The notes under the pieces were generated by a model, which worked only from the letters and a program-made list of their open reading frames with translations, was not told the DNA's origin and made no database searches. DNA of 24,000 nt from an uncultured Halobacteriales archaeon (lineage in GTDB: Archaea; Halobacteriota; Halobacteria; Halobacteriales; SW-7-71-33): assembly GCA_964402765.1 (NCBI GenBank), contig CAYODS010000006.1:1-24000 (forward strand), written 5' to 3'. This document shows, one piece after another, positions 308 through 16,350 of the stretch (position 1 is its first letter; each line of letters opens with the position of its first letter). A program made the position numbers and the translations under genes.

Positions 308-2518
308 TCAACCCTCCACCCTGACGTCGCCGACCCGTACGCTGACCAACCACCTCGTCTGCACCTCCGAGGGTGCCTTCCCGACGTCCAGCAACAGCAC
401 GACGTTGTTGCGGTCGGTGCCGCCATCGTTGTCGTCGACCTCGACGACAGCGACGACCTCGTTCTTGTCGAGGTCGAGTTGCTGCTGTCCGTCGCCGTCG
501 AAGTCGGTCGTGAGTTCGTCGGGGATCGCGGTGGCGGTGCCGTTCTGCCACCACCACGCCGCGCCGGTCGGCAGGTCCGAGCCGTTCGTGTAGATCGTCG
601 CGCCGGTCGACGAGGCGTTCACCCCGCCGGGCGCGGTGCAGCGGGCGATCTGGTACTCCTTCGAGGCGTTCCACGAGGGGGCTATCGTCGCGCCAGTCGT
701 TGTGTTCGCCGTGCAGTCGTACACGCGGGTCTGGTTGACTGTGAGCGCCTGGCCGTCGTCGACACCGAACAGGGACGGCGAGAGGTCCTCGGGGGTCTGG
801 ACGTTCAGTCCGGGGCCGGTCGGCGTCGCCGAGCCGACCCAGGGCCTGACCGTGTTCGGACCGACGCCGAGGTCGACGACCGTCGGCGTGTTGACGACGT
901 ACCGCTCCGGTACGCGGGTCTGGGAGACGTCCCGGTAGATGTCGTCGAAGACGCTGGGCAGGTCGGCGGCGGTCGGCGCGTGGTACTCGTTGCCGCCGGT
1001 CTGGTCGGCGATCTGCTTCGTGACACGCCGGTCGGCCCCGCCCCCGACGGCGACGGTGTACACCGGGATGCCGCTCGCGTTGGTGACCTGTGTCTCGTTC
1101 ACCCAGTTCGTGAAGTCGGGACCGGAGTCGCCGTGGGCCACGTCCCCGCTGTACGGGACGTTCGGGGGCTGGTCCTCTGTCGGCTTTCCGTCGGTCAGCA
1201 GGACGATCACCTGCTTGTGGGAACTGTTGCCGTCGCGCTCCAGGAGGCGACGGGCGTCACGGAGTCCGGCGTCGGTCGGCGTGGCGTAGTCCAGCGTCCC
1301 GGAGTTGCGCACCTGAGTCTTCGCACCCGAGAGGTTCTCGGTGAGGGTGAAGTGCGTGACCGCCGGGTCCAGCGGCCCGGAGTAGGTGGCATTGTTGTGG
1401 GCGTGTTTCCCGGGGAAGCCGACCGCCGCGACCCGATGGTCGACCGGGTCGCCCTGCAGTTCGTCGATGAACTGCACCGTCGCGTCCTTGGCCTCGTGGA
1501 TCGGCGTCCCCGAGGGGTGGGTCGTGTCGCTCGGGCACCCACCGCTGAGCATCGAACACGACTCGTCAATCACGAAGACGATGTCGACTGGCGTCGTCGA
1601 CACGTTCGAGGTGACGTTGATGTGCGTCTTGTTGTAGCCGTTCTCGGCCGCCAGCAGTCGCGTCGACACCTCGTAGGTGTTGCCGACACCCTTGTCGACC
1701 CGCACGCCGTTCGAGAGCAGTTCTCCGGTGTCGCTGTCTCCGTCGGTGAAGTCGACGACCTTGTTGCGGTCGTCGTCCGCCCGTCGCGGGAGTTCGTCTT
1801 CGTCGAGTTTGAGCGTGACCACGTCACCGGTCCGCGTGACCGACGCCGAGTCCGGGAACTCCGCCTCGAAGTGCTCGCGCCACTGGCCCGGGAACTGGCT
1901 CTCGACCGAGACGGTGATCTCGTCCGGCCTGGTACACCCCGGCTTCGCGAACAGGCGCTCCATCGCCGTCCGGGTTCGCTCGCGAGTCCCCGTCGCGTTC
2001 TCGACGGCGGTGAACGTCCCGTCGGCGCCGCCGCCGCTGACGTTGAACGTCGTCACGCTCAGCGTGCCGTTCCGGTAGCCCACCGCCGGCGGCGACACCG
2101 TCGTCGGCCCCGACTCGGTCACGGCGAACACCCCACCCGCCTGGTACACCAGTTCGGGCCCCTCGTCGACGTCGTACCGGATACTGTCCAGCGCCAGCGT
2201 TCGCGTGCAGGTGCTCGTGCGCTGGACCGACACGGTCACCCGCCCGCCCGTCGTCACCGACGTCGACCCGTCCGTCCCGAGAGACGCCGGCACCGACTGC
2301 CGGTTCGGGCTCACGATCACCGACCGGAGCCGCCCGTCGAGTTCCTGGATCGACTGCGTGGCCCGCTCGGTCGCCGCCTCCTCGGTCAGTTGCCCGCTCA
2401 CCGTCGACCCCCCGACGTAGATCGCCGCCGCCCCGGCGACCACGAGCCCGAACAACAACACCACCCCGACCACCTCCGTCACCCCCCGTCTCGGCCTCGC
2501 GTCGGGTGTCTCTCTCAA
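308..2518 (-). CDS. P1: pilin-signal/vWA family paralogue. Class III (type IV prepilin-like) signal, conserved N-domain, vWA domain, conserved C-domain; predicted secreted or surface protein
   Basis: 736-aa ORF with GC3-rich codons. N-terminus MRETPDARPRRGVTEVVGVVLLFGLVVAGAAAIYV has a basic n-region, RG|VTEV and about 20 hydrophobic residues. vWA MIDAS residues: DxSxS in VDIVFVIDESCSM (aa 311-323), T in DYATPTDAGL, D in VIVLLTDGKP; the vWA segment is roughly nt 923-1591. Many N-x-S/T sequons. No C-terminal TM helix or PGF-CTERM. The only available start codon is TTG at 2516-2518: there is an in-frame stop at 2573-2575 and no ATG or GTG between. Confidence 0.85.
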   Translation of the reverse strand: MRETPDARPRRGVTEVVGVVLLFGLVVAGAAAIYVGGSTVSGQLTEEAATERATQSIQELDGRLRSVIVSPNRQSVPASLGTDGSTSVTTGGRVTVSVQRTSTCTRTLALDSIRYDVDEGPELVYQAGGVFAVTESGPTTVSPPAVGYRNGTLSVTTFNVSGGGADGTFTAVENATGTRERTRTAMERLFAKPGCTRPDEITVSVESQFPGQWREHFEAEFPDSASVTRTGDVVTLKLDEDELPRRADDDRNKVVDFTDGDSDTGELLSNGVRVDKGVGNTYEVSTRLLAAENGYNKTHINVTSNVSTTPVDIVFVIDESCSMLSGGCPSDTTHPSGTPIHEAKDATVQFIDELQGDPVDHRVAAVGFPGKHAHNNATYSGPLDPAVTHFTLTENLSGAKTQVRNSGTLDYATPTDAGLRDARRLLERDGNSSHKQVIVLLTDGKPTEDQPPNVPYSGDVAHGDSGPDFTNWVNETQVTNASGIPVYTVAVGGGADRRVTKQIADQTGGNEYHAPTAADLPSVFDDIYRDVSQTRVPERYVVNTPTVVDLGVGPNTVRPWVGSATPTGPGLNVQTPEDLSPSLFGVDDGQALTVNQTRVYDCTANTTTGATIAPSWNASKEYQIARCTAPGGVNASSTGATIYTNGSDLPTGAAWWWQNGTATAIPDELTTDFDGDGQQQLDLDKNEVVAVVEVDDNDGGTDRNNVVLLLDVGKAPSEVQTRWLVSVRVGDVRVEG

Positions 2519-2530
2519 AAAGTACTCACC

Positions 2531-2566
2531 TGTATAACCAACTAAACCCGAATAAATTAAATTTTG
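2531..2566 (-). promoter_or_regulatory. AT-rich promoter island upstream of P1 (TATA-like candidates)
   Basis: The minus strand reads AAAATTTAATTTATTC (2566-2551) and GGTTATACA (2539-2531), in an otherwise very GC-rich context, 13-48 nt upstream of the TTG start. Which box is used and where the TSS lies cannot be decided from sequence. Confidence 0.35.
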
Positions 2567-2677
2567 CCCCAGTTAGATTCATCTATTGCAAACAGCAGAG
2601 AAGTAACGGCTCCCGCCGAGGGAGGACGATCGCGCCGTCTGCCGAGGGCACGACGGGGTCGGCGGTCGACTGGAAGA

Positions 2678-2685
2678 ACTTTTAC
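2678..2685 (+). promoter_or_regulatory. TATA-like box for the 2709 gene (a leaderless transcript is implied)
   Basis: ACTTTTAC is centred about 27 nt upstream of GTG 2709. This spacing is typical of haloarchaeal promoters driving leaderless mRNAs. Confidence 0.4.
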
Positions 2686-2708
2686 CCGAGAGGTCCGGCG
2701 GGGCGTCC

Positions 2709-3209
2709 GTGAGTGACGGCGCCGGCGGCACGGACGGTCACGGCGGCAAGGGGCCTGACCGTGCCGGGGAACGAGCGGGCGAGCGCGAGCGCGAGCGGCG
2801 CCGGGACAGTCGCCGCCCGCCGCGCTCGTTGCAGGTCGCGGTCGCGGTCGGACTCGGACTCGTCCTGGTCGCCATCGCCGCGCTCGGGGTCGCCGTCTAC
2901 CTCGACGGCGCCGCGCCCGGCGGACTCGACGTACCCCGGGCGGAGTTGCAGTTCTCGTACGACGGGGAGACGGGCACGCTCGCCGTCGAGCACGTCGGTG
3001 GGCCGGCGTACACCACCGAGAACACCGCGGGGCTGTACGTCGCGGTGAACGGCACCGCCCGCGAGACCGTCACCCTGCCGTTCGGACCGGGCGAACGCCA
3101 CGTTCTCGAGGACGTCCCCGCCGGCCAGGAGGTGGCACTCGTGTGGGTCGCGGAGGGCGGCGAGGAGGAACGGACCGTCAGCTCGACCGTCGTGGGCGAG
3201 AGCGAGTGA
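2709..3209 (+). CDS. Small membrane-anchored protein: Arg/Glu-rich N-tail, one TM helix, and a beta-rich ectodomain of about 100 aa reminiscent of archaeal pilin (Pilin_N/DUF1628-type) globular parts
   Basis: 166-aa ORF with strong GC3 bias and an acidic C-terminal part. TM segment: LQVAVAVGLGLVLVAIAALGVAVYL. It is followed by RAELQFSYDGETGTLAVEHVGGPAYTTENTAGLYVAVNG, which resembles the 'FSF..D..G.tltvtH.GGd.l.a..l.v.vnG' pattern I recall from haloarchaeal pilin-like proteins. GTG start with a TATA-like box at -27. Transcribed divergently from P1. Confidence 0.6.
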   Translation: MSDGAGGTDGHGGKGPDRAGERAGERERERRRDSRRPPRSLQVAVAVGLGLVLVAIAALGVAVYLDGAAPGGLDVPRAELQFSYDGETGTLAVEHVGGPAYTTENTAGLYVAVNGTARETVTLPFGPGERHVLEDVPAGQEVALVWVAEGGEEERTVSSTVVGESE

Positions 3210-3251
3210 GGCGGTGTCCACGCGATCGGCCACCACCGGCACAGGGCAGGC

Positions 3252-6200
3252 TCAGCCCGACTCCCCTCCCGAGACGGACTCGGGATCCGGGTCGGCGCCC
3301 GGCTCCGACGCTTCAGAGTCCGGGGCGAGTTCGTCCCGCAGTCGGCGGAACTCCTCGCGGCGCTCCGCCAGGTCGAGGTCGTCCGCGGCGTCGATCCGCT
3401 CCAGAGCGCGCTCACACCACTCCCGGGCGGCCTCGTCGTCGCCGGACTCGCGCTCGAGGTCTTGGAGACGCTCGACGGTCTCGAGCCCCTCCCTGACGGC
3501 GCCCATCCGGTCGTAGCGGTCGAGTGCCTCCTGTAGGTGCTCACGCGCCCGTTCCGTGTTCCCGCGCCGTTCGGCGACATCCGCGAGCGTACCCAGGGCG
3601 TTCGCCTCGCCACGGACGTGCCCGATCTCGACGAACACCGACTGTCCCTCACGGGCGTACTCGCGGGCCCGGTCGAGGTCATCCTGCAACACGGCGACCT
3701 TGCCGAGGTTGTTGAGACAGCCCCCGACGGACTCGGGGTCGCCGAGCCGCCGGTTCTCCGCAAGTGCCCGCTCGAAGAACTCCCGCGCCCGGTCGAGGTC
3801 GCCCTCCTCGCCCGCCACCATGCCGAGGTTGTTGAGCGCTCCGGCCACGCCGTCCCGGTCGCCGATCGTCTCACAGAGGTCGAGCGCCCGCTGGAACTGC
3901 TCTCGCGCCCGGTCGTGTGCGCCGCGGTCGAAGGCGACGTTGCCCAGGTTGTGCAGGGCGATGGCCTCTCCCTGGCGGTCCCCGAGGGCACGGGCGAGTT
4001 CGAGACCGTCGAGGTAGTGCTCCCGTGCGTCCTCGAGGGCGCCCTTCATCCGCTCGACGGTGCCCAGGTCCGTGAGGATCCCCCGCACGGAGCGACGGTC
4101 GCCGGCTTCGCGGGCGATCTCCAGGCTTCGCCGGAACCGCTCGCCCGCCCGGTCCAGGTCGCCGCGCTTCCTGTCGACCCAGCCGAGCTGGTTCAGACAC
4201 TCCGCGACCCTTCCCCGGTCGTCACCCCGTCGCGCCCGCTCCAGTGCCGTCCGGGCGTGCTCCTCGGCGGCGTCGTAGTCGTCACGGGCGTGTGCCACCT
4301 CCGCGAGCCCGAGCGGCCGGACCACGCCCTCGTCCGGCAGCGACTCGAACGCCCGCTCGGCGCGCTCGGGGTCGCCACGGTTCAGCGCCGCCCGGCCGAG
4401 CCAACGGTCCAGGTCCGCCTCCGTGACCCGCTCGCACGCCGCCGGTAGGTCGACGCTCGCGCCGGACGCGCCGAACAGCGGAACCACCTTCGGGCGCTCC
4501 CGGGCCAGCGAGAACAGCGCCTCGGCGGTCTCGTCGGCCCACTCCGTCGGCGCCGCCTCGACCCGGGGCAGTGCCGACGCCTCGGTCTCCTGGCGGAGCC
4601 GCTCGCGGCGCCGTGGGTCGTCGGCGAGCGCGAGCAGCCGCGAGATGGCCCGGCCGAACCGCTCCGTGGCCCGCTCCGCGTCCGCGGCCGCGGCGAGAAA
4701 CGCCGTCGCCCACGCCTCGTGGACCGTCCGGTAGGTGCCGTCGTCGCCCACGCCGAACAGCAGTCGACCGTCCAGCAGGTCGACCGTCCGCTCGGCCGTC
4801 TCCTCGCCCGGCTCGGCCAGCGCGTGGAGGTGTCCCGGCCCGAACGGCACCCCGGCGGCGGTCAGCGCCGCCGCCGTCGTCGCCACGCTGACGGAGTGTT
4901 CTTCCTCCGAGACGCGCTCGCGGAGCCGCTCGACGGCCTCCTCCAGCGTGGTCGAGTCCTCGGCCAGCGGGTCGGCGTACAGCGCCAGCCGGTGGGTGAG
5001 CAACAACACCTCGTCCGGCGCCGCCCCGTCGCCGCCGGGGCCCCGGTCACCCTCGATCGTCTCCCGCAGGCGCTCGACCGGCACGTCGATCGTCGTCTCG
5101 GCGGTCCGCTCGAACTGCTCGACCACGCGCCGGTAGTCGGTGTCGTCGAGCGACGGCATCGGCTCGACGGCGAGGTCGAGGGCGTCGAGGTCGGTCGCCG
5201 GCGCCGCCGGCGGGTCGTGCCACTCCGACAGGCGGGCGTCGAACAGGAACGAGACCGACGCCCCGGCCAGCCGTCTCGCCGCCTCGACGGCCCCGACCGC
5301 CCCGGGCTGGACGACGTCCTCGACGACCACCAGCGTGTGCCCGTCGGTCGCCTCGACGGCGGCGACGAGGTCGTCGACCGACTCGACCGCCGCCCCGCGC
5401 CCGCGCTCCCGGTACAGCACCGGCCCGTGCCCGGCGTCGTACCACTCGCAGGCGACCTGCTTGCACACCGTCGACTTCCCCGACCCCGGTGGGCCGACGA
5501 CCAGCGTGTCCTCGCCCGCCGTCAGGGCCGCCAGCAGGCGGTCGGTCAGCGACTCGCCCTCGTCTGTCGTCCGGTCGGCGGCGTAGCCGCTCTGGACCTC
5601 GGCCACGTCCAGCCCGGCACGCCACGCCGTCGCCGGGTCCGCGACGGGACTGTCGACGAAGTACGACCGGTCCAGGGCGACGAACCCCTCGCGCTCCAGT
5701 GCGACCGGCAGTCCGCCCCGCCCGTCGTCGAGGTCGCTGGCCCCCGTCTCCCTGGCGACGGACGCCGTCACCGGCGTGGCCGCTGACCGCAGGTCGGCGT
5801 AGGTCGACTCGGCCCAGCGAACGGCCGCCTCGGCGTCGTTCCGGATCACCGCGTGGACGCCCCCGTCGACGACCACGACCACCGTGACGACCGTCCGGTC
5901 GCCGGTCTCGGCGACGACGACCCCGAACGACGGCACCTCGCCCGTCAGCAGTTCGAACTCCTCGGCGGCCATCGCGCGCAGTTCGCCCCCGAACCTGGCG
6001 GCCAGGGATTCCCGGACCGCCGGGGAGACGACCACCTCGACCGCGGCGTCGTCCCTGACGACGCGGTCGTACAGCAGCCGCGCCGTCGGCGCCGAGACGG
6101 TCGGCAGGGCGGCCCGGACCCGGTCGGCCTCGCGGAGACTCTCCCGGAGTCGCCCTGGCGCCCGGTAGCGCTCGCCGTCGGACGGGCCGACGACCTCAGC

Positions 6201-6530
6201 GTCCGACAGCACGGCGGGGACGAGCGGGGCGTCAGCCGGGAGTGGGTCAAGCGCCCCCTGGGCCGCCACCACCCCCTCTACGCGACGCCGGTGTGCCCGG
6301 TGGGCGTCCAGTGCCAGCCGACCCGACGGCGTCAGCGCGTAACCCTCGCTGTCGTCGCTCCCCTCGACGAACCCGGCGGCCGCCAGTCTCCGCACCGCAC
6401 GGCTGGCGGTGCTCTTCGAGACGTCGGTACGGTCCGCCAGCTCACCGAGCGTCAGCCGGTCGTCCGCCAGTGCCCCCAGCAGGTGTCGGCGCCGGGCCAG
6501 CAGGTCGACGGGGTCGTCGGCGTCCTCCAT
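3252..6530 (-). CDS. Multidomain regulator-like protein: winged-HTH plus COG4742/FilR1-like regulator module, P-loop NTPase (STAND/AAA-like), and C-terminal TPR array
   Basis: 1092-aa ORF starting at ATG 6530. The wHTH is at aa 10-75 (LGELADRTDVSKSTASRAVRRLAAAGFVE...GYALTPSGRLAL). A regulator C-domain-like block covers aa 150-250 (VVVVVDGGVHAVIRNDAEAAVRWAESTY). Walker A GPPGSGKST is at aa 346-354 (nt 5469-5495). Walker B-like LVVVEDV is at aa 400-406 (nt 5313-5333). A helical linker follows, then six or more 40-aa TPR-like units at aa 776-1015 with degenerate flanking units, and an acidic tail. Confidence 0.85.
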   Translation of the reverse strand: MEDADDPVDLLARRRHLLGALADDRLTLGELADRTDVSKSTASRAVRRLAAAGFVEGSDDSEGYALTPSGRLALDAHRAHRRRVEGVVAAQGALDPLPADAPLVPAVLSDAEVVGPSDGERYRAPGRLRESLREADRVRAALPTVSAPTARLLYDRVVRDDAAVEVVVSPAVRESLAARFGGELRAMAAEEFELLTGEVPSFGVVVAETGDRTVVTVVVVVDGGVHAVIRNDAEAAVRWAESTYADLRSAATPVTASVARETGASDLDDGRGGLPVALEREGFVALDRSYFVDSPVADPATAWRAGLDVAEVQSGYAADRTTDEGESLTDRLLAALTAGEDTLVVGPPGSGKSTVCKQVACEWYDAGHGPVLYRERGRGAAVESVDDLVAAVEATDGHTLVVVEDVVQPGAVGAVEAARRLAGASVSFLFDARLSEWHDPPAAPATDLDALDLAVEPMPSLDDTDYRRVVEQFERTAETTIDVPVERLRETIEGDRGPGGDGAAPDEVLLLTHRLALYADPLAEDSTTLEEAVERLRERVSEEEHSVSVATTAAALTAAGVPFGPGHLHALAEPGEETAERTVDLLDGRLLFGVGDDGTYRTVHEAWATAFLAAAADAERATERFGRAISRLLALADDPRRRERLRQETEASALPRVEAAPTEWADETAEALFSLARERPKVVPLFGASGASVDLPAACERVTEADLDRWLGRAALNRGDPERAERAFESLPDEGVVRPLGLAEVAHARDDYDAAEEHARTALERARRGDDRGRVAECLNQLGWVDRKRGDLDRAGERFRRSLEIAREAGDRRSVRGILTDLGTVERMKGALEDAREHYLDGLELARALGDRQGEAIALHNLGNVAFDRGAHDRAREQFQRALDLCETIGDRDGVAGALNNLGMVAGEEGDLDRAREFFERALAENRRLGDPESVGGCLNNLGKVAVLQDDLDRAREYAREGQSVFVEIGHVRGEANALGTLADVAERRGNTERAREHLQEALDRYDRMGAVREGLETVERLQDLERESGDDEAAREWCERALERIDAADDLDLAERREEFRRLRDELAPDSEASEPGADPDPESVSGGESG
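3486..4205 (-). repeat. Six tandem 120-bp (40-aa) TPR-like coding repeats inside the 3252-6530 CDS
   Basis: Units begin AECLNQLGWV.., RGILTDLGTV.., AIALHNLGNV.., AGALNNLGMV.., GGCLNNLGKV.. and ANALGTLADV... Each has the pattern ..LG.V....GDLDRARE.F..AL......GD. DNA-level echoes such as cgcgcccggtcgaggtc recur with a period of 120 bp. Confidence 0.75.
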
Positions 6531-6561
6531 ACGGTAGCCTCGACGGGGGCGGCGTCACAAG

Positions 6562-7260
6562 TCAGTTCGGGTCCTCGAGCACCACGGGAACGCCGCTCTC
6601 GGCCACGTCGGCCGCGAAGGCGCGCTCGTCGGTCTCTATGGCCTCGAAGGTGTCGTAGTGTACCGGCAACACGAGGTCGGGGTCGGCCGCGGCGGCCAGG
6701 GCGGCGGCCTCGTGGCGGTCCATCGTGAAACTGCCACCGATCGGCGGCAGCAAGAGGGAGGCGGCGAGGTCGGCGTGGAAGTCCAGCACGTCGGTGTCGC
6801 CCGGCCAGAACACCGGCAGGCCGTCGACGCGGACCCGGAACCCGACGCCGAACCCCTCCGGGTGGTACGGGGTGCCGTCCTCACGGACGTGGCCGTCGGG
6901 CCGGTTGTGCGCGGGGAAGGACTCGACGCGGACCCCGTCCACCCGGAGGGCGTCGTCCTGGCCGATCCGGTTCACGCGCCGGTCCAGCTCCTCCGGCGGG
7001 ACCACGTCGCGGTCGATCCCCGCCGGGTCGACGCCGTCGTACACGACGAGCGTGGCGTCCTCGCTCGCGACGCGGTCGATCCCCTCGGAGTCGTAGTGGT
7101 GGTCGTGGGTCACACAGACCACGTCGCCGTCGCGGGGCTCGTGGCCGTCGAGCACGCCGTACCGTCCGGGGTCGAGGTAGACGACGCCGTCGCTGCCCTC
7201 GATCCGGACGGTGGCGTAGCCGAGCCAGTCGACGCGCAGGCCCTCGTGTCGGACTGTCAT
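6562..7260 (-). CDS. MBL-fold metal-dependent hydrolase (beta-lactamase superfamily, UPF0173-like)
   Basis: 232 aa. N-terminus: MTVRHEGLRVDWLGYATVRIEGSDGVVYLDPG. Metal-binding motif VCVTHDHHYD (HxHxDH variant). Later residues include PGDTD and LPVHYDTF. Confidence 0.8.
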   Translation of the reverse strand: MTVRHEGLRVDWLGYATVRIEGSDGVVYLDPGRYGVLDGHEPRDGDVVCVTHDHHYDSEGIDRVASEDATLVVYDGVDPAGIDRDVVPPEELDRRVNRIGQDDALRVDGVRVESFPAHNRPDGHVREDGTPYHPEGFGVGFRVRVDGLPVFWPGDTDVLDFHADLAASLLLPPIGGSFTMDRHEAAALAAAADPDLVLPVHYDTFEAIETDERAFAADVAESGVPVVLEDPN

Positions 7261-7298: not shown

Positions 7299-9599
7299 TC
7301 AGGTGCTCTCTTCGACCTCGGTCACGTCGAGATCGAGCACCTGGTTCACCTCGTACTTCGTGGAGTAGCCCACCTCGTACAGCATCACCAGACCGTTCGT
7401 GTCGTGGCTCCCCGCGTCAGCGAACTCGTAGACGACGACCACCTGGTTGCTCTGCAGGTCGAACGTGCCCCCGCTGGTGTAGGGGTCGACGATGTCGGCC
7501 ACGCGCCGCTGCCAGCCGACGGGCGTCCCGCCGTCCGTGACGCTGCTCACCGGGTCGCCCGCGACGGCGACGTGGACGTCGGCCGCACCACCGACACTCG
7601 ACAGCCCCGGTCCGGCACACCGGTACTCGTTGTAGTGGTCGTCGAAGTCTCCCCTCACGGCGTCGTTGTACGGGTACTGGGCGGCGCTCGAGTTGTTCGT
7701 CCGGTACCCCCACTCCCTGTCGACCAGGGTGCGTTCGCCGCTCTTGTTGACGTCACAGGTGTACCGCTCGACCTCGGTGGTGAGCTTCTCGCCGTCGGTC
7801 AACAGCCCCGGCGTCTCGACGCGCCCGCCGTACTCCTGGTGGACGGCGTCCGCGACGGGACTACCGCTGTCACCCCAGGTCTTGCCGTCGTGGGTGTGCT
7901 CGACGGTCACCGGCTCGTGCAGCACACCACGGATGTCCGTGATGTAGTAGGTGTCGGTGCCGTTTGGCACCCTGTAGGAGTAGTTCTCGCCCTTGCCGAT
8001 GAGGTTCTCGAAGGTGTCGTCGAGCTCCTCGCCCTCGCCCTTGTACACGTGGTCGTACTCGGCGTCGGTGTCGGCGGCGACGTCTTTCATCAGCCCCTTG
8101 TTGACGTCGCTGTCGCTGCCGAACGTCACCGTGTACACCTTGTACCCCTTGTCGATGGCGTCCGCGACGGGGCAGTTGTCGCTGGGTGAGGTACTGCCGC
8201 CCAGCGGTCTGCCACAGGACGGGTCGTACGGGCCGGCCCCGCCGTTCGGCTCCCCGTCGGTCATCATGATGATGACCTCGCTGCGGTTGGGGTCCTGCCC
8301 GAGTTCGGACATCGCCTCCTCCAGTCCGTCGTCCATCGGGGTGCCGCCGCTGTCGCTGAGACCGCTGGCCGCGCTCTTGACGTCCCCGAGGTTCGATGTC
8401 AGTCCCTGGTGGACCTTCGTGTTCCCGCCGTGGCTGCCGGAGTAGCCGACCAGCGCCGCCTTGTGACTCTTGTTGTCGCTCTGCAGCCGCGAGGTGAACT
8501 GCTTGACCGCCGCCTTCGTGTCGGAGATCTGCTGGCTGCTCATCGACCCGGACTCGTCCATCAGGAACACCACGTCGAGCGGCTCCTCGCTGCCGGGGTC
8601 CCAGACCCACTTGTAGTCGGGCACCTCCTTCTCGTGTCTGTGGGACTCGTTGTACCCCACGTCGCCGCCGAGCACCTGTGCAGTGAGCCCGTACCGGTTG
8701 TCGTCGGCGGGCTTGTCGACGACGATGTCGACGCCGCTGCCGTTTCTGACGACGGTCCCGTACGCGTCCGGGCCGGACTCGTTGAACGCGACGACCCTGT
8801 TGCGGGAGTCGTTGACGGCGTCGAGCAGCACCCGCTCGGGCATCTCGACCTCGACCCTGTCGGCCGCCGGCGTCGACACCGTCACCCCGCTGACGTCGCC
8901 GAGACGGGACTCGAAGTACCGCTCCCAGCCGCCGGCCCGCTCGCTCTCGACTATCAGCTTCACGCCGTCCGGACGGTTACAGTCCTGGGTGGCGAACAGG
9001 TTCCGAAGCGCCTGCTTCGTCTGCTGGACCGACCCCTCGACGTCCCGGCTGGCGGTGAACTCGTGGGTCAGGTCAGCGGGCAAGTCGAACACCGAACTCT
9101 TCACAGTCCCCTCAGTCAACCCGACGTCCGGCGGCGTGTCGACGACCGTACTGCCGTCCTGGGTGACGAATACGCCGCCCGCCTGGTAGCTGATCACCGT
9201 GCGGTCGTTGACCTCGTAGTCCACGCGGTCGAGGGGCACCGTCGCCTCGCAGGCGCCGGTGTATCCCGTCCCGTCGTGGAAGCGTATCGTCAACTGGTCG
9301 GTCGTGTCCACCCGCACCGACTCCTCGTCACCGACGCGGTCGGTGATCTCGAACGAGACCGCCGAGGAGTCACTCCTGACGGAGAGGTCCGCGAGGGAGG
9401 CGTCGAGTTCCTCGACCGACCCGATCGCCGACTCGTACCTGCTCTGTTCGGAGATCTGGTTCTGTGCGCTCGTTCCCGTGACGACCACCAGTGCCGCCCC
9501 AGCGATGACGAACCCGAATAGTAGTGCGATACCGATGACCTCCGAGACGCCGCGGTCCGGCGCCCCCCCTGGTGACAGTTCTCTATCGCTGGCGTCCAT
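7299..9599 (-). CDS. P2: pilin-signal/vWA family paralogue
   Basis: 766 aa, ATG start. N-terminus: MDASDRELSPGGAPDRGVSEVIGIALLFGFVIAGAALVVV. MIDAS residues: DVVFLMDESGSM (DESGSM is nt 8541-8558), SGGTPMDDGL, VIIMMTDGEPN. The vWA segment is roughly nt 7995-8582. Collinear with P1, P3 and P4 in the N- and C-domains, including four conserved Cys (aa 117, 207, 615, 661). Confidence 0.9.
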   Translation of the reverse strand: MDASDRELSPGGAPDRGVSEVIGIALLFGFVIAGAALVVVTGTSAQNQISEQSRYESAIGSVEELDASLADLSVRSDSSAVSFEITDRVGDEESVRVDTTDQLTIRFHDGTGYTGACEATVPLDRVDYEVNDRTVISYQAGGVFVTQDGSTVVDTPPDVGLTEGTVKSSVFDLPADLTHEFTASRDVEGSVQQTKQALRNLFATQDCNRPDGVKLIVESERAGGWERYFESRLGDVSGVTVSTPAADRVEVEMPERVLLDAVNDSRNRVVAFNESGPDAYGTVVRNGSGVDIVVDKPADDNRYGLTAQVLGGDVGYNESHRHEKEVPDYKWVWDPGSEEPLDVVFLMDESGSMSSQQISDTKAAVKQFTSRLQSDNKSHKAALVGYSGSHGGNTKVHQGLTSNLGDVKSAASGLSDSGGTPMDDGLEEAMSELGQDPNRSEVIIMMTDGEPNGGAGPYDPSCGRPLGGSTSPSDNCPVADAIDKGYKVYTVTFGSDSDVNKGLMKDVAADTDAEYDHVYKGEGEELDDTFENLIGKGENYSYRVPNGTDTYYITDIRGVLHEPVTVEHTHDGKTWGDSGSPVADAVHQEYGGRVETPGLLTDGEKLTTEVERYTCDVNKSGERTLVDREWGYRTNNSSAAQYPYNDAVRGDFDDHYNEYRCAGPGLSSVGGAADVHVAVAGDPVSSVTDGGTPVGWQRRVADIVDPYTSGGTFDLQSNQVVVVYEFADAGSHDTNGLVMLYEVGYSTKYEVNQVLDLDVTEVEEST

Positions 9600-9620
9600 A
9601 CTTGATTAAACCGTATGCGG

Positions 9621-9630
9621 AGTATAATAC
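9621..9630 (-). promoter_or_regulatory. TATA-like box for P2 (a leaderless transcript is implied)
   Basis: The minus strand reads GTATTATACT, centred about 27 nt upstream of ATG 9599, inside an AT-rich island (9600-9685). Confidence 0.45.
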
Positions 9631-9666
9631 AAAATTATCCCGCTGAGTAATGCCTATTGTTCCGTG

Positions 9667-9673
9667 AAATAAA
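9667..9673 (-). terminator. Oligo-T tract (minus strand TTTATTT), candidate terminator for P3
   Basis: This is the first T-rich run downstream of the P3 stop codon, about 120 nt away and beyond the duplicated 3' segment. Archaeal termination commonly uses oligo-T. It overlaps the AT-rich region upstream of P2, so the assignment is weak. Confidence 0.25.
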
Positions 9674-9700
9674 GTAGTGAACTTACTCCGTCGCCTCGAA

Positions 9701-9840
9701 CGCGAACGGGGCGGTGGGGAGGCGAATCAGTTCCCGGGCTCGACCACGCCGGCGCTCGGGTCGATCGCGAGCGGGGCGGTAGAGGAGAGGCGAGTCAGTT
9801 CTCGGGCTCGACCACGTCGACCTTCAGGTCGACCGCGAAC
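9701..9840 (-). repeat. Tandem duplication (units 9701-9765 and 9766-9833, plus 7 nt of a third unit) copying the P3 3' end and its proximal 3' flank
   Basis: Unit A: cgcgaacggggcggtggggaggcgaatcagttcccgggctcgaccacgccggcgctcgggtcgat. Unit B: cgcgagcggggcggtagaggagaggcgagtcagttctcgggctcgaccacgtcgaccttcaggtcgac. My hand alignment gives about 85 % identity with one 3-nt indel. Unit B holds the true P3 end (..FAVDLKVDVVEPEN*). Unit A encodes a relic tail, LAIDPSAGVVEPGN*. Confidence 0.85.
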
Positions 9841-11984
9841 TCCGCGGACATCGAGGTCGACTTGCCGACGGTGTACATCACGACGGCGCCGTTGAGGTTC
9901 GAGCCGGTCGGGTCGCTGTAGGCGACGACCACCTGGTTGCTCTGCAGGTCGAACGTCCCGCTGTCGGTGTAGGGAGCGACCATCTGGTCGAAGTTCGTCT
10001 GCCAGGCGGGCGAGGAACTCGACGGCACGCTGTCGCCGTCGGTGAACACCTGCACCGTGCTCGGGGTCTTCTTGGAGCTGTGGTCGACCGAGTCACACCG
10101 GTACTGGTCGTAGGCGTCGTACTTGTACTTCGGCTTGATTGTCGGCGGCCCGCTGCCGGTGTCGACGACGAGGTCCGAGACGTTCGACGGGAGCGACATC
10201 GAGGCGGGTTCGGTGGGCTTGTTTTTCACGCTTGCGCAGTCGAACAGATTCGCGCGGATCTTCATCCGCTTGCCGTCGGGCAGCGAGGGGACGGCGGTGA
10301 CGTACTCCTGGTAGTTGACCGCCTGCTGGACCTTCGTGGTGCCGCTGACGACGGGCTCGTAGCCGCCGCTGCCGACCTTCTGTTCCAAGACGACGGGCTT
10401 GCGGACGATCTTCGGCGGCTCGGTCAGGTTGTACACCGTCTTCGTGCCGACGGTCCCGTTGTACACCTTGTACCCCAGGTCGTTGACGATGAGCTTGTAC
10501 TCGTCACCGATGGCTTTCGCCTCCGAGATGTGGGCGTAGAGCCCGCCGGTGTTGAACGCGATGCTCCCCAGGGTGGTCTTGTCAGCCCCCGGCCCGAACC
10601 CGATGGTGTAGATCTTGATGCCGTGGTTGTTTGCCTTCTTGACCATCCCGTACGGGTACGAGGCGTGCCCGTCTGACATCAGGGCGATCACCTTGTTGCG
10701 GTCAGACCCCGTGTTCTTCAGCTGATTGATGGCGTGGGACAACGCCGGAGTGAAGTCAGTGCCACCGCTGGCGCTCAGACTGTCCACCGAGTCCTTCAGC
10801 GCCGCCCGGTCGCTGGTGAGACCCTTGTGCGGGTTCGCCCCGCTGTCGAAGCCGACGAGCGACGCTTTGTGGTCCCGATTGTTGGGGAACTCGTCGAGGA
10901 ACTTCCGTATCGGGTCTTTGGTGTTGTCGATCTCGTCGTTCATCGAGCCGGACTCGTCGACCAGGAACACGATGTCCAGGGGCTTGCCGTCCTTGCTCTT
11001 CCACACCCGACCGGTGATGTTCTGCTCCGTCTTCGTCACCTTACCGTTCGTCTGGCCGTACTGCGTCCCGAGCAACTGTGCGGTGACCTTGTAGCTGTTG
11101 TTCGTACCCTTGTCGACCCAGAGCTTCGCACCGTTGCCGTCCGGGATGACGTCGCCGGCGATCGTCTTGTTCGTGAAGTCGACGACGTTGTTGCGGTCGT
11201 CGTCGGTCTCCTTCACCAGCTGAGAGTTGTTGATCACCGCCGTGACCGTCGAGCCGCTGACCGTCACCGACACGCCGGAGGGAGTCTCATCGCGGAGGTG
11301 TTTCGCCCACACTTCCGTGTCGTCCGTGTCGATCGTGACCCGCACCTTCTCCGGGCGCTTGCAGGCACTGTTCCCGAACAGGTCCGACTTCTTCTTGGCG
11401 GTGACCTCCTTGGACCGCTCGACGTCATGTTCGACCCCGAACTCGTCGTCCTGGATGTCGCTCTTGAACTTGGTGAGCCGCAGGCCGAGGGTGCCCTCGC
11501 TGAACCCGAGGTCCGGCTCGCTGACGATCTTCGTGTGGTTCCCCGTCGTCTTGAACACGCCGCCGGCCTGGTGGGTAAATGTCGTCTCGTTGTCGACGTC
11601 GTACACGATCTCCTGCAGCGGGATCGAGGTCATACAGTCGGAACGGAACTTGTTTCCGTCGTGTAACTCGACGGTTACGCTGTCGCCTGTCTCCATGTGG
11701 ACCGACTCGCCGTCGGCGTCACGGTCGGTCAGGTCGAACGAGACCTGTTTCGGCGCGCCGTCGCTCGTGACGTCTGACAGTTTCGTGTCGAACTGCTGAA
11801 CGGCCTTCTCTGCCGACTCCACCTGTCCCTGTTCCTCGAAACTGCTCTGGGCCGAGGTCCAAGTCACGGCGACCAACGCCGCGCCGGCCACGATCAGGCC
11901 GAACAGGAGGACGACGCTTATTACCTCCGAGATACCACGACGCTGGTCCCCCAGGTCAGGACCGTCTCCGCGATCCCCCTTCAT
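9795..11984 (-). CDS. P3: pilin-signal/vWA family paralogue (Lys-rich, lower-GC member)
   Basis: 729 aa, ATG start. N-terminus: MKGDRGDGPDLGDQRRGISEVISVVLLFGLIVAGAALVAV. MIDAS residues: DIVFLVDESGSM, SGGTDFTPAL, VIALMSDGHAS. The vWA segment is roughly nt 10470-10982. Conserved Cys at aa 117, 208, 583 and 630. C-terminal blocks: TFDLQSNQVVVAY, VVMYTVGKST, VDLKVDVVEPEN. Confidence 0.9.
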   Translation of the reverse strand: MKGDRGDGPDLGDQRRGISEVISVVLLFGLIVAGAALVAVTWTSAQSSFEEQGQVESAEKAVQQFDTKLSDVTSDGAPKQVSFDLTDRDADGESVHMETGDSVTVELHDGNKFRSDCMTSIPLQEIVYDVDNETTFTHQAGGVFKTTGNHTKIVSEPDLGFSEGTLGLRLTKFKSDIQDDEFGVEHDVERSKEVTAKKKSDLFGNSACKRPEKVRVTIDTDDTEVWAKHLRDETPSGVSVTVSGSTVTAVINNSQLVKETDDDRNNVVDFTNKTIAGDVIPDGNGAKLWVDKGTNNSYKVTAQLLGTQYGQTNGKVTKTEQNITGRVWKSKDGKPLDIVFLVDESGSMNDEIDNTKDPIRKFLDEFPNNRDHKASLVGFDSGANPHKGLTSDRAALKDSVDSLSASGGTDFTPALSHAINQLKNTGSDRNKVIALMSDGHASYPYGMVKKANNHGIKIYTIGFGPGADKTTLGSIAFNTGGLYAHISEAKAIGDEYKLIVNDLGYKVYNGTVGTKTVYNLTEPPKIVRKPVVLEQKVGSGGYEPVVSGTTKVQQAVNYQEYVTAVPSLPDGKRMKIRANLFDCASVKNKPTEPASMSLPSNVSDLVVDTGSGPPTIKPKYKYDAYDQYRCDSVDHSSKKTPSTVQVFTDGDSVPSSSSPAWQTNFDQMVAPYTDSGTFDLQSNQVVVAYSDPTGSNLNGAVVMYTVGKSTSMSAEFAVDLKVDVVEPEN

Positions 11985-12010
11985 TGATTAATGCATGATT
12001 AGGGCATAGG

Positions 12011-12020
12011 TCAAAAAGGT
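12011..12020 (-). promoter_or_regulatory. TATA-like box for P3
   Basis: The minus strand reads ACCTTTTTGA, centred about 30 nt upstream of ATG 11984, within the AT-rich divergent intergenic region 11985-12100. Confidence 0.4.
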
Positions 12021-12054
12021 TCTCCCCGATAACCTGAACGGCGTGGCGAGGCAT

Positions 12055-12090
12055 CAATAATTAATTTTCACGGCCAGAATAGTAAAAAAC
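12055..12090 (+). promoter_or_regulatory. AT-rich element upstream of cofD (candidate promoter)
   Basis: Sequence: CAATAATTAATTTTCACGGCCAGAATAGTAAAAAAC. The A-run at 12081-12089 is about 26 nt upstream of GTG 12111. This suggests a TSS near 12111, giving either a 45-nt leader to ATG 12156 or a leaderless GTG start. Confidence 0.3.
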
Positions 12091-12155
12091 ACCCGGTCGA
12101 CGGGCGTGGCGTGCGTCCGAAACCCATTAGGGACGGACCGGTCGTATCCCTTCGC

Positions 12156-13950: not shown

Positions 13951-16131
13951 TCAGTCCTCGAACTCCACCACGTCGACCGTCAGGTCGATCGTGGCGGTGG
14001 CGCTGGTCGAGTGTGGCGCCCCGACACGGTACAGCAGGACCGCGTTGTTCGTCTCCCCGGCACCGTCGCCGTCGTCGTCGTAGGAGAACGCCACGATCAC
14101 CTGGTTGCTGTCGAGGGCGAACTCCTCGGCGCCGTCGCCGTCGATGTCGGCGGCGTGGGGGGCGACCATCTCCCTGAACTCCGTCTGCCACTCGGCGGGC
14201 TGGTCGCCGACGGCGGCGTTGACCGGATCGCCGCGGACGTACCCGTCGGCGTCGGCTGGCGGACTGTACGTCGTCGTCACCTCGCACTCGTAGTGGTCGT
14301 AGTACGCGGGGTCGGTCTCGTAGGCCGGCTTCAGGTCGAAGTCGTCGTCGAAGGCGTCCGAAGGGAGCGGGACCCGGGTCCGGAAGGGGGTGTCCGCCTG
14401 GTCGTCGTGGTCGGGACACCCGTAGAAACTGGCGGTCGTGCTCAGGGGCTCGCCGTCCGCGAGTGTCGGCGGCGTCACGACGTACTCCTCGTAGTTGACC
14501 GCCCGGTAGACGGGGCTGGCCCCGCCGACCATCGACTCCCAGGTGCCGCCGCCGAGGCGGTACCGGAGAACGACGGGCTCGTGGACGATCCGCATCGTGC
14601 TGACGTTCGCCTCGACGGCCTTCAGGGTGAGATTCGGGAGCCCGTCGTACAGGTGCATGTAGAACCCGCGGCCGCCACGGTTCTGGATCCGGATCTTGTT
14701 CGACTCCGGGGTGAACAGGAACGTCCGGTCGGCGTCGTCACCGAGCGCGTCGGTGTGGTTGTAGAGTGTCGTCCAAGAGCCGCCGTCTTTCTCCTGGATC
14801 TCGAACCTGGCGTCGTCGAGCAGCTCCCTGTCCGTCGCGGCGGCCAGGACGACCGGCTCACCCGGGTCGACGGTGTACTCCTTCCAGGTGCCGCAGTTGT
14901 TGTACACCACCCACGCCGCCGCCCCCGGCCCCGTGGTCGGCCTGTCGACGCCGCTGGCGCTCGTACAGGTCGACCCCTTCGCGTCGGTCTTCACCGGGTA
15001 ACTCTCCTCAAGCAGGGAGGCGGGCACGCCCGCGATGACGGCACCCGACCCGACGTAGTCGGTGACGTCGACGTCGGCCCTGCCGACGACCCGACCCGAC
15101 CCGTCGACGGTGACGAGTTGCAGCTTCTCGCTGCGGTTGGCCGCCCGACGGAGCAGGGAGCCGTCGATCTCCTTCACCGTCGTGTTCACCGTGAGGTGCT
15201 GCTGACCCGTCTGCGCCCCCAGGAACTCGGTGGAGACGTCGTAGGCGTTCGAGTCGTCGGGCTTGTCCACCTCGATCTCGACCGCCCGGGAGTGTTCGCT
15301 GACCGTTCCGGGGAGCGTGCTGGTGTTGAAGCCGACGACCTGGTTGCGGTCGTCGTCCGCGCGCTCGACGAGCGTGCCACCGCCCAGTTCGACCGTGACC
15401 TCGTCGGGCGTCGAGACGACCGTCGCCGAGTCCGGGGTCTCCTCACGGAGGTGTTCGCTCCAGGCGGCCGTGTGGTCGGTCTCGACGACGAGTTTCACGC
15501 CGTCCGGCCGCCGACAGCCCTCGCCGTCGAACAGGTCCCGGCGCACCTGGTCGGTGGTCCGGCTGGACGCCGTCACGTTCCGGGTCACCTCGAGCCTGCC
15601 GCTGCCGGCGTCGTCCGGCAGCGCCACCGTCCACACGTTCAGGGTGCCGTCGCTGAACCCCACGTCCGGGGCGGTGACGAACTCCGTCGACCCGTCCTCC
15701 TGGCGGAGCACCCCGCCACCCTGGTACACCATCGACGTCTCGTCGGTGACGCGGTAGCGCACCTCGTCGAGGGGCACCGTCACCTGGCACTCCGGCACGT
15801 ACCCGGCGTCGGTGCGCACCCACAGCCGCAACTGGTCGTCTCGCTGGACCGTGACTCGCTCGCCCTCACCGTCCAGCTCCGCCAGGTCGAGCGTATCACT
15901 CCTCGCCTCTCCCTGTGTCGCCACGTCGGTGAGCCGACTGTCGAACTCCTCCATCGTCACCTCGGCGGACTCCACCCGTATCTCTGTCTCCACCCCCGAC
16001 CCGGCCTCCGACCACGCGACCGCGAGGATCGCCGCCGCGGAGACGACCAGCCCGAAGAGGATGACCAGACTCATCAACTCCGAGACGCCCCGGCGTCCGT
16101 CCCCCCGGCTCGTGGCCGGCCTCCCCCTCAT
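13951..16131 (-). CDS. P4: pilin-signal family paralogue lacking the vWA domain (the middle domain is replaced)
   Basis: The ORF track gives 13951-16281, but its first 50 codons run through the AT-rich promoter region. ATG 16131 gives MRGRPATSRGDGRRGVSELMSLVILFGLVVSAAAILAV (726 aa), collinear with P1-P3. The N-domain (C115, C206, YQGGGV, DDDRNQVVGF, VDKPDD) and C-domain (C572, C616, LDSNQVIVAF, VLLYRVG, IDLTVDVVEFED) are conserved. No DxSxS/MIDAS is present in aa 320-512 (nt 14596-15174). Confidence 0.85.
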   Translation of the reverse strand: MRGRPATSRGDGRRGVSELMSLVILFGLVVSAAAILAVAWSEAGSGVETEIRVESAEVTMEEFDSRLTDVATQGEARSDTLDLAELDGEGERVTVQRDDQLRLWVRTDAGYVPECQVTVPLDEVRYRVTDETSMVYQGGGVLRQEDGSTEFVTAPDVGFSDGTLNVWTVALPDDAGSGRLEVTRNVTASSRTTDQVRRDLFDGEGCRRPDGVKLVVETDHTAAWSEHLREETPDSATVVSTPDEVTVELGGGTLVERADDDRNQVVGFNTSTLPGTVSEHSRAVEIEVDKPDDSNAYDVSTEFLGAQTGQQHLTVNTTVKEIDGSLLRRAANRSEKLQLVTVDGSGRVVGRADVDVTDYVGSGAVIAGVPASLLEESYPVKTDAKGSTCTSASGVDRPTTGPGAAAWVVYNNCGTWKEYTVDPGEPVVLAAATDRELLDDARFEIQEKDGGSWTTLYNHTDALGDDADRTFLFTPESNKIRIQNRGGRGFYMHLYDGLPNLTLKAVEANVSTMRIVHEPVVLRYRLGGGTWESMVGGASPVYRAVNYEEYVVTPPTLADGEPLSTTASFYGCPDHDDQADTPFRTRVPLPSDAFDDDFDLKPAYETDPAYYDHYECEVTTTYSPPADADGYVRGDPVNAAVGDQPAEWQTEFREMVAPHAADIDGDGAEEFALDSNQVIVAFSYDDDGDGAGETNNAVLLYRVGAPHSTSATATIDLTVDVVEFED

Positions 16132-16154: not shown

Positions 16155-16170
16155 GGACAAAAAATTTCTG
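16155..16170 (-). promoter_or_regulatory. TATA-like A/T run for P4
   Basis: The minus strand reads CAGAAATTTTTTGTCC, centred about 30 nt upstream of ATG 16131. Confidence 0.4.
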
Positions 16171-16350
16171 CCTATCTCGCTCTCGGTTAAATTTTCGTCG
16201 TGTGCGAGGGCTCAAACCCCGGAGACCGAACGTCACCACCGAGCGGTCGGTCCCAACCTGACGCCCGGGGCGCCCTCCCACCGGGCCGGGAGCGGGCGGT
16301 GCCTGCTTCGCGGTGGGCGAGGACGACGGCGGGGTCGGGGTGCCGCGGCG

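Follow-up and report, generated by a model that had tools for sequence, protein, structure and literature searches.

What is the task of the protein encoded at positions 3252..6530 of the window, the whole 24,000-nucleotide stretch of DNA analysed here (contig CAYODS010000006.1, assembly GCA_964402765.1, from an uncultured Halobacteriales archaeon)? The minus strand there carries one open reading frame (ORF) of 1092 amino acids (aa), in which a winged helix-turn-helix (wHTH) regulator module is followed by a P-loop NTPase and an array of tetratricopeptide repeats (TPRs). Archaeal transcription factors are mostly small and of one domain, and to our knowledge large ones gated by nucleotides are rare, with no function assigned to any of them. 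The answer that we consider probable is that the ORF is one functional gene, encoding a signal-transducing transcription regulator of the STAND class (signal transduction ATPases that have numerous domains), similar in kind to the nucleotide-binding, leucine-rich repeat (NLR) proteins, and that it belongs to a family apparently confined to haloarchaea. The domain order, the intact catalytic motifs, a confident STAND-like fold, the conserved fusion and an exchangeable N-terminal slot carry this answer, while DNA binding, an ATP switch, a ligand and targets are attributed to the window protein by analogy.

The initial annotation, made from the letters alone, had described one uninterrupted ORF of 1092 aa, and translation bears this out, with the start at the first ATG downstream of the upstream stop and all the peptides it had quoted at their expected places (LGELADRTDVSKSTASRAVRRLAAAGFVE at aa 28-56, GYALTPSGRLAL at aa 63-74 and VVVVDGGVHAVIRNDAEAAVRWAESTY at aa 218-244). 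A codon-usage log-odds gene caller trained on the window's Pfam-supported genes picked the whole ORF as one gene, a check that is partly circular, the ORF itself being among the training genes. The linker region contains no stop codon, and the only in-frame GTG codons are those for aa 254 and 309. The gene and its parts, all on the minus strand, are as follows (GA, Pfam gathering threshold; AF2, AlphaFold2; pLDDT, its per-residue confidence score; NOD, nucleotide-binding oligomerization domain).

3252..6530, minus strand: whole gene, for wHTH, FilR1_middle, STAND NOD, arm, TPR array and acidic tail; full-length homologues cover 92-100%
6276..6500, minus strand: wHTH, aa 11-85, recognition helix SKSTASRAV; Pfam HVO_A0261_N 2.8e-13, 50 bits (GA 35)
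5784..6167, minus strand: FilR1_middle (formerly DUF1724) alpha/beta domain, aa 122-249; PF08350 2.8e-19, 69.9 bits (GA 27), pLDDT 80-95
5712..5783, minus strand: flexible linker from regulator module to NOD, aa 250-273; pLDDT <50 at aa 263-271
5526..5711, minus strand: family-specific segment before the P-loop, aa 274-335 (LEREGFV...TAWRAGL...EVxxGYA), also found in kinase-headed variants
5151..5525, minus strand: nucleotide-binding domain (NBD), aa 336-460; Pfam nSTAND_NTPase5 and a P-loop ASCE-like order of strands and helices
5469-5495, minus strand: Walker A, GPPGSGKST, aa 346-354
5313-5333, minus strand: Walker B, LVVVEDV, aa 400-406
4671..5150, minus strand: helical domain and winged-helix domain of the NOD, aa 461-620; in AF2 helix 544-586, strands 591-594 and 600-602, helix from 605
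4338..4670, minus strand: helical arm or spacer, aa 621-731; all-helical in AF2, 43% mean pairwise identity
3378..4337, minus strand: array of eight 40-aa TPR repeats, aa 732-1051, the putative sensor; TPR_12 2.4e-41, TPR_MalT 3.5e-23
3252..3377, minus strand: acidic C-terminal tail, aa 1052-1092, including the stop codon; disordered from about aa 1074 (pLDDT <50 at 1074-1092)

The class of the NTPase is central to the question. Pfam nSTAND_NTPase5 matches aa 340-439 with 37.4 bits against a GA of 34, and relatives of the protein score 44-56 bits on the same model, some of them also matching nSTAND3 and AAA_16 weakly. The residues G346, P348, G349, G351, K352, S353, T354, E404, D405, R433 and P459 do not vary among 46 full-length relatives; of these, R433, which closes the fourth strand (426-433), is a candidate sensor-1 arginine. 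H604 and W607 are likewise invariant, and H604, lying just after the wing hairpin of the model, is a candidate for the MHD-like histidine of the winged-helix domain, which would touch the phosphate of ADP. Mean pairwise identity is 53% in the segment before the P-loop and 57% in the NBD. The AF2 model of the full-length protein, built on the alignment of the 46 relatives, has a pLDDT of 87 and a predicted TM-score of 0.71, and is laid out as a wHTH, an alpha/beta domain, a disordered linker, a five-stranded P-loop domain, a helical domain, a winged helix, an arm and a TPR solenoid. A Foldseek search with it was dominated by TPR proteins, though 725 columns aligned to PH0952 (6mfv, E 3.8e-11), and a model of the NOD only (aa 272-740, pLDDT 77) was therefore built. 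Its best matches were Avs5 (9jap, E 3.9e-8), SAMD9, CED-4, AVAST5, Orc1/Cdc6, MalT (8bob, ranking 7th), Avs3/4 and the plant NLR Sr35. Since a curated Pfam model is matched above threshold and the NOD finds these folds, the NTPase is assigned, from sequence and model, to the STAND class and not to the kinase-type P-loops, which agrees with the initial annotation, as does the STAND-like layout of the structure prediction that it had called for. The protein combines Walker A, Walker B and a candidate sensor-1 arginine with an NBD, helical domain and winged-helix domain, a repeat sensor and a position for exchangeable effectors.

That last position comes into view with the family as a whole. A BLASTP search of 5.8 billion proteins gave 283 matches at E<=1e-5, and the best 120 of these 283 show 32-45% identity, mostly over 90-100% of the length, nearly all with the same set of Pfam domains. 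Among the matches listed every source-named homologue is haloarchaeal, and their names are merely "tetratricopeptide repeat protein" or "hypothetical protein"; the family appears confined to haloarchaea. Searching 1.84 billion cluster representatives exhaustively with the NTPase core (aa 272-740) gave 358 clusters (50% identity), of which 333 reach E<=1e-10, and in most of the best 150 of the 358 the core starts about 270-400 residues from the N-terminus. From 238 sampled family proteins 220 have the wHTH-FilR1 head and 7 are fragments. Seven more have a kinase-like head (P0110, P0116, P0138, P0182, P0211, P0218 and P0220; Pfam confirms Ser/Thr Pkinase in four), and the remaining 4 (P0229, P0230, P0232 and P0236) join the same NTPase-TPR core to an unassigned N-terminal region of 180-230 aa that has no Pfam match. 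Because 220 of the 238 share the contiguous layout, the fusion is an old, conserved one and the ORF one gene, and because siblings hold a Ser/Thr kinase in place of the regulator module, the N-terminal position appears to act as an exchangeable effector slot. An exchangeable effector position is a hallmark of STAND proteins, and the STAND logic initially proposed for the fusion, with the effector at the N-terminus, is in keeping with both results.

Members of the family occur in the genera Haloferax and Halorubrum, for example in Haloferax sp. Q22 (locus L003) and Halorubrum ejinorense (locus L004), and there are three copies in each of the genomes of Halovivax gelatinilyticus and Natrialbaceae archaeon A-CW2. 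Paralogues also stand in pairs of the same orientation, in tandem or one gene apart (L019 10001-17491, L030 3959-12692 and L052 10001-17608; the L numbers denote collected loci).

The head was initially taken for a complete-looking regulator module of the COG4742/FilR1 type, and a wHTH followed by FilR1_middle, both above their Pfam GA, is what is found. The wHTH region also matches MarR_2, HTH_20 and the IclR HTH; in the AF2 model it has helices at 28-35 and 39-51 and a wing at 55-66, and among the 46 relatives S38, T41, R44, A45 and L49 are invariant or nearly so. The recognition helix is nearly invariant across the family alignment. The corresponding head of FilR1, an ArsR-related wHTH with DUF1724, binds promoters in vivo and in vitro, by chromatin immunoprecipitation (ChIP) and electrophoretic mobility shift assay (PMC3991700), and by analogy the head of the window protein probably binds DNA. 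TbsP of Haloferax was considered as a further DUF1724 regulator and rejected, DUF1724 being only a target gene in the TbsP paper.

At the other end, the helical region of about 270 aa that had been noticed between NTPase and repeats corresponds to aa 461-731 and so takes in both the remainder of the NOD and the arm. The repeats, of which at least six regular ones of 40 aa had been counted, prove to be eight, six of them very regular, in clean 40-aa register over aa 732-1051. TPR_12 matches with 140 bits and TPR_MalT with 82.8 bits (GA 45), at about aa 740-1052, and by fold the array matches LGN, CTPR and 6mfv. It is the most variable region of the protein, with 36% identity.

How such a protein might work can be proposed by analogy with MalT, AfsR and PH0952. 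At rest the NOD (NBD, helical domain and winged-helix domain) would be ADP-bound, closed and monomeric, with the TPR array and arm stabilising this state. A ligand would then bind the sensor; given that this sensor consists of TPRs, the ligand would most likely be a protein or peptide. ATP would replace ADP, and the NOD would open and oligomerise. Oligomerisation would cluster or free the wHTH and FilR1_middle heads, leading to DNA binding and a change in transcription. As to what is transcribed, the best candidates as targets, for the family at large, are neighbouring genes whose products are large secreted surface proteins, among them PQQ beta-propellers and beta-helix/PKD/CARDB giants.

These candidates come from 35 distinct homologous loci in which genes were called. 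In a contig scan made with the full alignment, matches to the generic GPPGSGKST predominated and left only four useful loci, and a metagenome scan was then made with the segment before the P-loop as probe. In 12 of the 35 loci the gene immediately next to the regulator gene, often divergently transcribed, codes for a large protein of secreted or surface type; of the 237 genes that stand more than 2 positions off in the same loci, 3 do so. This difference is to be read with the limits that the seed proteins were taken from the neighbours and that some loci are orthologous and so not phylogenetically independent. Some of these neighbours are giants of 900 to >3100 aa with beta-helix/NosD, PKD, CARDB, Big or fn3 domains (L018, L019, L030, L033, L035 and L041, with an additional CARDB/PKD giant second downstream in L036), and others are PQQ-type beta-propeller proteins of about 420-510 aa, or >760 aa in L032 (L014, L019, L026, L032, L036 and L043). 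PQQ propeller proteins were described as surface-associated in a Haloferax study (PMC13464002). The closest relatives of the window protein (L051 and L052) lie among housekeeping genes.

Other kinds of neighbour were seen as well. A divergent upstream regulator of the BAT/HTH_10 (bacterio-opsin-activator-like) type is present in L001 (8333-9622), L010 (8577-9782), L011 (8506-9816) and L016 (8612-9922), with an additional GAF domain in those of L001 and L010; the four loci are one orthologous group. L010 also has a type IV pilus-like operon (T2SSE, DUF7289, DUF7266/63/62/61) 4-10 kb upstream.

In one subfamily there is a conserved intergenic element of 45-50 nt, with a consensus of roughly CCTCATGTTACGGGTCGCnACACTGTTTC-N5-GTGGGACAGTG, that contains the inverted repeat ACACTGT-N13-ACAGTGT. 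It is situated between the regulator gene and the PQQ or giant surface-protein gene next to it, at these positions of the loci concerned.

L018: 9838-9885
L019: 9850-9897
L020: about 9019
L034: about 3388
L036: about 9022 and about 13048
L040: about 2021 and about 3002
L041: about 6842
L042: about 3694
L043: about 4462

The core pattern TGTTTC-N5-GTRNNAC has 11 matches in the 719 kb of collected loci, all of them intergenic, where about 0.7 would be expected by chance (an estimate); the pattern was defined from five of the matches, which leaves six independent ones. In loci with well-called genes the element is about 120-135 nt upstream of the ATG of the regulator and faces the surface-protein gene, and in L036 the second copy precedes the PQQ gene. 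The notion that the element holds the start codon of the neighbouring surface-protein gene (ATGAGG, opposite strand) had to be dropped: nine loci have ATGAGG at the fixed offset, and in 8 of them the resulting ORF is 2-261 aa long and does not reach the neighbour, L036 being the exception with an ORF of 549 aa that runs from the ATGAGG into the PQQ gene. No Rfam family matched the window or five loci that carry the element. Because the recognition helix is nearly invariant family-wide, the element is a reasonable operator candidate; the window has no copy of it.

From this a wider reading can be drawn, which we put forward tentatively: the proteins may be haloarchaea-specific, NLR-like, ATP-gated switches, often with at least three paralogues per genome, each controlling an adjacent giant protein of the surface or adhesin type, in one subfamily through ACACTGT-N13-ACAGTGT. 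The proteins controlled would be the PQQ propellers and the beta-helix/PKD/CARDB giants and, in the window, perhaps the pilin-VWA proteins.

The last of these brings the argument back to the window, where the genes around the regulator gene are arranged as follows (MBL, metallo-beta-lactamase; P, a family of four proteins with a DUF7289 pilin-like N-terminus and a VWA domain).

2709..3209, plus strand: gene for a small, weakly pilin-like membrane protein, convergent with the regulator gene and 42 nt away; Pilin_N match 0.0023, weak
6531..6561, no strand: gap of 31 nt between the regulator gene and the co-directional MBL gene upstream; AT-rich and TATA-like boxes are absent
6562..7260, minus strand: gene for an MBL-fold metal-dependent hydrolase, between the regulator gene and P1; Lactamase_B_3 1.2e-22
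7299..9599, minus strand: P1, DUF7289 (pilin-like N-terminus) and VWA protein; context only, no demonstrated partner
308-2518, 7299-9599, 9795-11984 and 13951-16131, all minus strand: the four P genes

The small convergent gene, and P1 at one gene's remove, are as initially described, and it was from this arrangement that control of the P genes had been suggested. The protein would then be a local regulator of the surrounding P-family genes, maybe auto-regulated within a P1-MBL-regulator operon. P1, the MBL gene and the regulator gene are indeed co-directional, with 38 nt from P1 to the MBL gene and 31 nt from there to the regulator gene, and the P proteins, pilin-like with VWA and probably at the surface, would fit the surface-gene neighbourhoods of the family. 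The only AT-rich islands in the 24 kb (>=12 of 16 bases A/T) are directly upstream of the four P genes; since the regulator gene has no AT box of its own, it may be transcribed by read-through from the P1-MBL unit. In many homologues with a sensibly called start there is a TATA-like box (ATATAAG, TATAA or TTAAG) about 30-45 nt before the ATG.

The comparison with other loci does not bear out the link, and its outcome is the one that the initial annotation had itself named as refuting it. A hidden Markov model (HMM) of the four window P proteins found a P-family neighbour in none of the 35 regulator loci, its sole weak match (L001_2, E 8e-9) being about 8 kb from the regulator; unannotated neighbours of 765-773 aa in L051 and L052 were also tested and are not P-family. 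Conversely, none of three P-family loci from elsewhere (L053, L054 and L055) has a regulator of the family. What decides the matter is L053, a locus of a close relative, in which the MBL protein (2357-3067) is 90% identical to that of the window, the small-gene product (3088-3558) 78% and P1 64%. The order P1-MBL-small gene is kept there with only 20 nt (3068-3087) between the MBL gene and the small gene, and it is this gap that window positions 3210-6561 fill, with the 3.3-kb regulator gene and spacers of 31 nt and 42 nt; no flanking repeats are seen at the site in the comparison of window and L053. The regulator is present in one and absent from the other of two close relatives, and the conserved unit is P1-MBL-small gene, so the position of the regulator beside P genes is a lineage-specific insertion or deletion and no conserved association. 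A motif bound by the head in the AT-rich islands upstream of the P genes had been envisaged too, but the four upstream regions share no 8-12-mer (0-2 mismatches, both strands) and no palindromes, and the intergenic element of the family is missing from the window. Regulation of the P genes by the window protein is possible but unsupported, and as an account of the gene we regard it as unlikely.

The P genes themselves show some further features. The AT islands lie at 2531-2592, 9595-9685, 11980-12093 and 16159-16175, in a window of 70-76% G+C, and the two adjacent P genes (window 7300-12000) have 62-67% G+C against 72-76% in flanking genes. A 64-nt stretch in the upstream spacer of P1 (9716-9779) is an 80% copy of 9784-9847, the 3′ end of the P gene at 9795-11984, and looks like a remnant of a tandem duplication of P genes.

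For the reading of the ORF as a functional STAND regulator itself, several observations have to be set on the other side of the balance. The similarity of the NOD fold to solved STAND proteins is only moderate (query-normalised TM-scores 0.27-0.47), AAA+ proteins (Orc1/Cdc6 and Clp) are also among its matches, and a sequence-profile search of the PDB with the NOD alignment was uninformative, finding only P-loop matches (ABC transporters and adenylate kinases). As the TM-scores are modest and the profile finds only P-loops in the PDB, the protein is a distant STAND member and no close relative of any solved protein. Within the head, the window wHTH deviates at nearly fixed positions (R29G, R39K, E48R and R57G; aa 29-57, window 6357-6446) and is the most divergent in the alignment, with 35% identity to the others against a family mean of 44%. 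The AT-island scan and the sequence of the 31-nt gap give the gene no promoter-like box of its own, its absence from the same site in a close relative makes it dispensable there, and the limits on the neighbourhood counts given above belong here too.

In a rival role the protein would be an antiviral or conflict STAND of the Avs type, with a TPR array that senses an invader protein and an HTH head that is the effector, switching on for example a programme of defence or dormancy. By fold the NOD is closest to Avs5, with Avs3 and Avs4 matching too; several paralogues per genome, tandem pairs and presence or absence between close relatives would suit such a system, as would one locus about 5 kb from a CRISPR-Cas array, and NTP-dependent conflict systems are known to use HTH domains as effector modules (PMC7159879). 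However, PADLOC matched no defence model and gave only generic TPR and weak HTH matches, an enzymatic effector is lacking, and the neighbourhoods are of housekeeping or surface-protein genes and not defence islands, for which reasons the role is a minor rival. The head, moreover, is a complete regulator module, of a kind for which promoter binding has been demonstrated (PMC3991700), and a recognition helix conserved family-wide fits a fixed cellular operator, so that a defence role is, in our judgement, distinctly unlikely.

That the window copy is a recently inserted passenger, poorly expressed or non-functional, with function belonging to the family only, would agree with its absence from the same site in a close relative, the missing promoter-like box, the divergent wHTH, a length that is the shortest among the members listed (1092 aa against 1130-1465 for most) and its standing as the sole member of its cluster, none of the BLASTP matches listed exceeding 45% identity. 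It is nevertheless very improbable, as the frame of 1092 codons has no interruption and shows strong coding statistics, every catalytic and structural invariant is retained, the fold is confidently predicted and the polymorphism is equally well explained by a deletion in the relative.

A functional STAND regulator, then, is the reading that is carried forward, and its interest lies in the family more than in the locus. The family is large, with about 350 clusters at 50% identity and several copies per genome, and Haloferax and Halorubrum, where it is found, include genetically tractable species. Its leads, giant secreted surface-protein neighbours and a palindromic intergenic element in one subfamily, form a testable neighbourhood signal. 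For the window caution is needed, as the position beside P genes is a lineage-specific insertion or deletion and no evidence of a regulon. If the regulator reading holds, an NLR-type switch would be tied to control of the archaeal cell surface, and the proteins would be a model for how STAND switches act on the archaeal, eukaryote-like transcription machinery; if the surface-control reading also holds, an archaeal STAND regulator would for the first time be assigned a function, and there would be a way into the remodelling of the haloarchaeal surface.

Among known systems, the stand-alone COG4742/DUF1724 regulators such as FilR1 of Methanothrix (Methanosaeta) harundinacea share the wHTH and FilR1_middle (PMC3991700, PMC5847659). 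In FilR1 these are controlled through a C-terminal REC domain, by phosphorylation, whereas in the window protein the controlling part is 830 aa of STAND NTPase and TPR array. With the Avs/AVAST proteins (EfAvs5, 9JAP; Avs3/4, 8DGC/8DGF) the window protein shares the order of effector, NOD and repeat sensor, and the best fold match of its NOD is to Avs5, but a nuclease, protease or SIR2 effector, a PADLOC match and a defence-island context are all lacking.

MalT of E. coli, of the LAL family, is a STAND activator of transcription with NOD, arm and TPR-like sensor, and TPR_MalT is matched above threshold. Its DNA-binding domain is a LuxR-type HTH at the C-terminus, unlike the N-terminal wHTH of the window protein, in which Pfam finds no GerE/LuxR match and whose C-terminus is the acidic tail; on the NCBIfam MalT model the window protein reaches 20.6 bits, where the cut-off is 537. 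AfsR of Streptomyces coelicolor (SARP-NOD-TPR) is closer in order, with an N-terminal DNA-binding effector, a central NOD and C-terminal TPRs, and its NOD-TPR part inhibits the DNA-binding head until ATP binds (PMC10936776), which is the mechanism proposed for the window protein. The window protein, though, has neither a SARP head (Trans_reg_C/OmpR-type wHTH and BTAD) nor an NB-ARC match, the NCBIfam AfsR model reaches 80.5 bits against a cut-off of 1430 and this on the TPR part only, and AfsR uses contacts with bacterial sigma factor and RNA polymerase that archaea do not have. By sequence, therefore, the protein is a member of neither the AfsR nor the MalT family.

The nearest precedent in plan is PH0952 of Pyrococcus horikoshii (6MFV), a predicted archaeal transcription factor with ArsR-like head, NOD and TPR sensor whose structure was solved without the head (PMC6468293). 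Both are archaeal and have a wHTH head followed by NOD, arm and TPRs, and an ArsR-like wHTH with this continuation is what the window protein has, the full model aligning over the 725 columns mentioned above. The two are nevertheless far apart, with 12% identity and a query-normalised TM-score of 0.26, and 6mfv is outside the top 50 for the NOD alone and absent from the PDB profile search; the haloarchaeal head adds FilR1_middle and the haloarchaeal NOD matches nSTAND_NTPase5. The initial annotation had known of no characterised STAND protein built on a COG4742-type HTH, and this stands in so far as a literature search found no published description of the haloarchaeal HTH-STAND-TPR family. 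It does not extend to the HTH-NOD-TPR logic, which is already known in archaea; because of the PH0952 precedent the architecture is no new kind, and what is new is the haloarchaeal build, with its added FilR1_middle and nSTAND5-type core.

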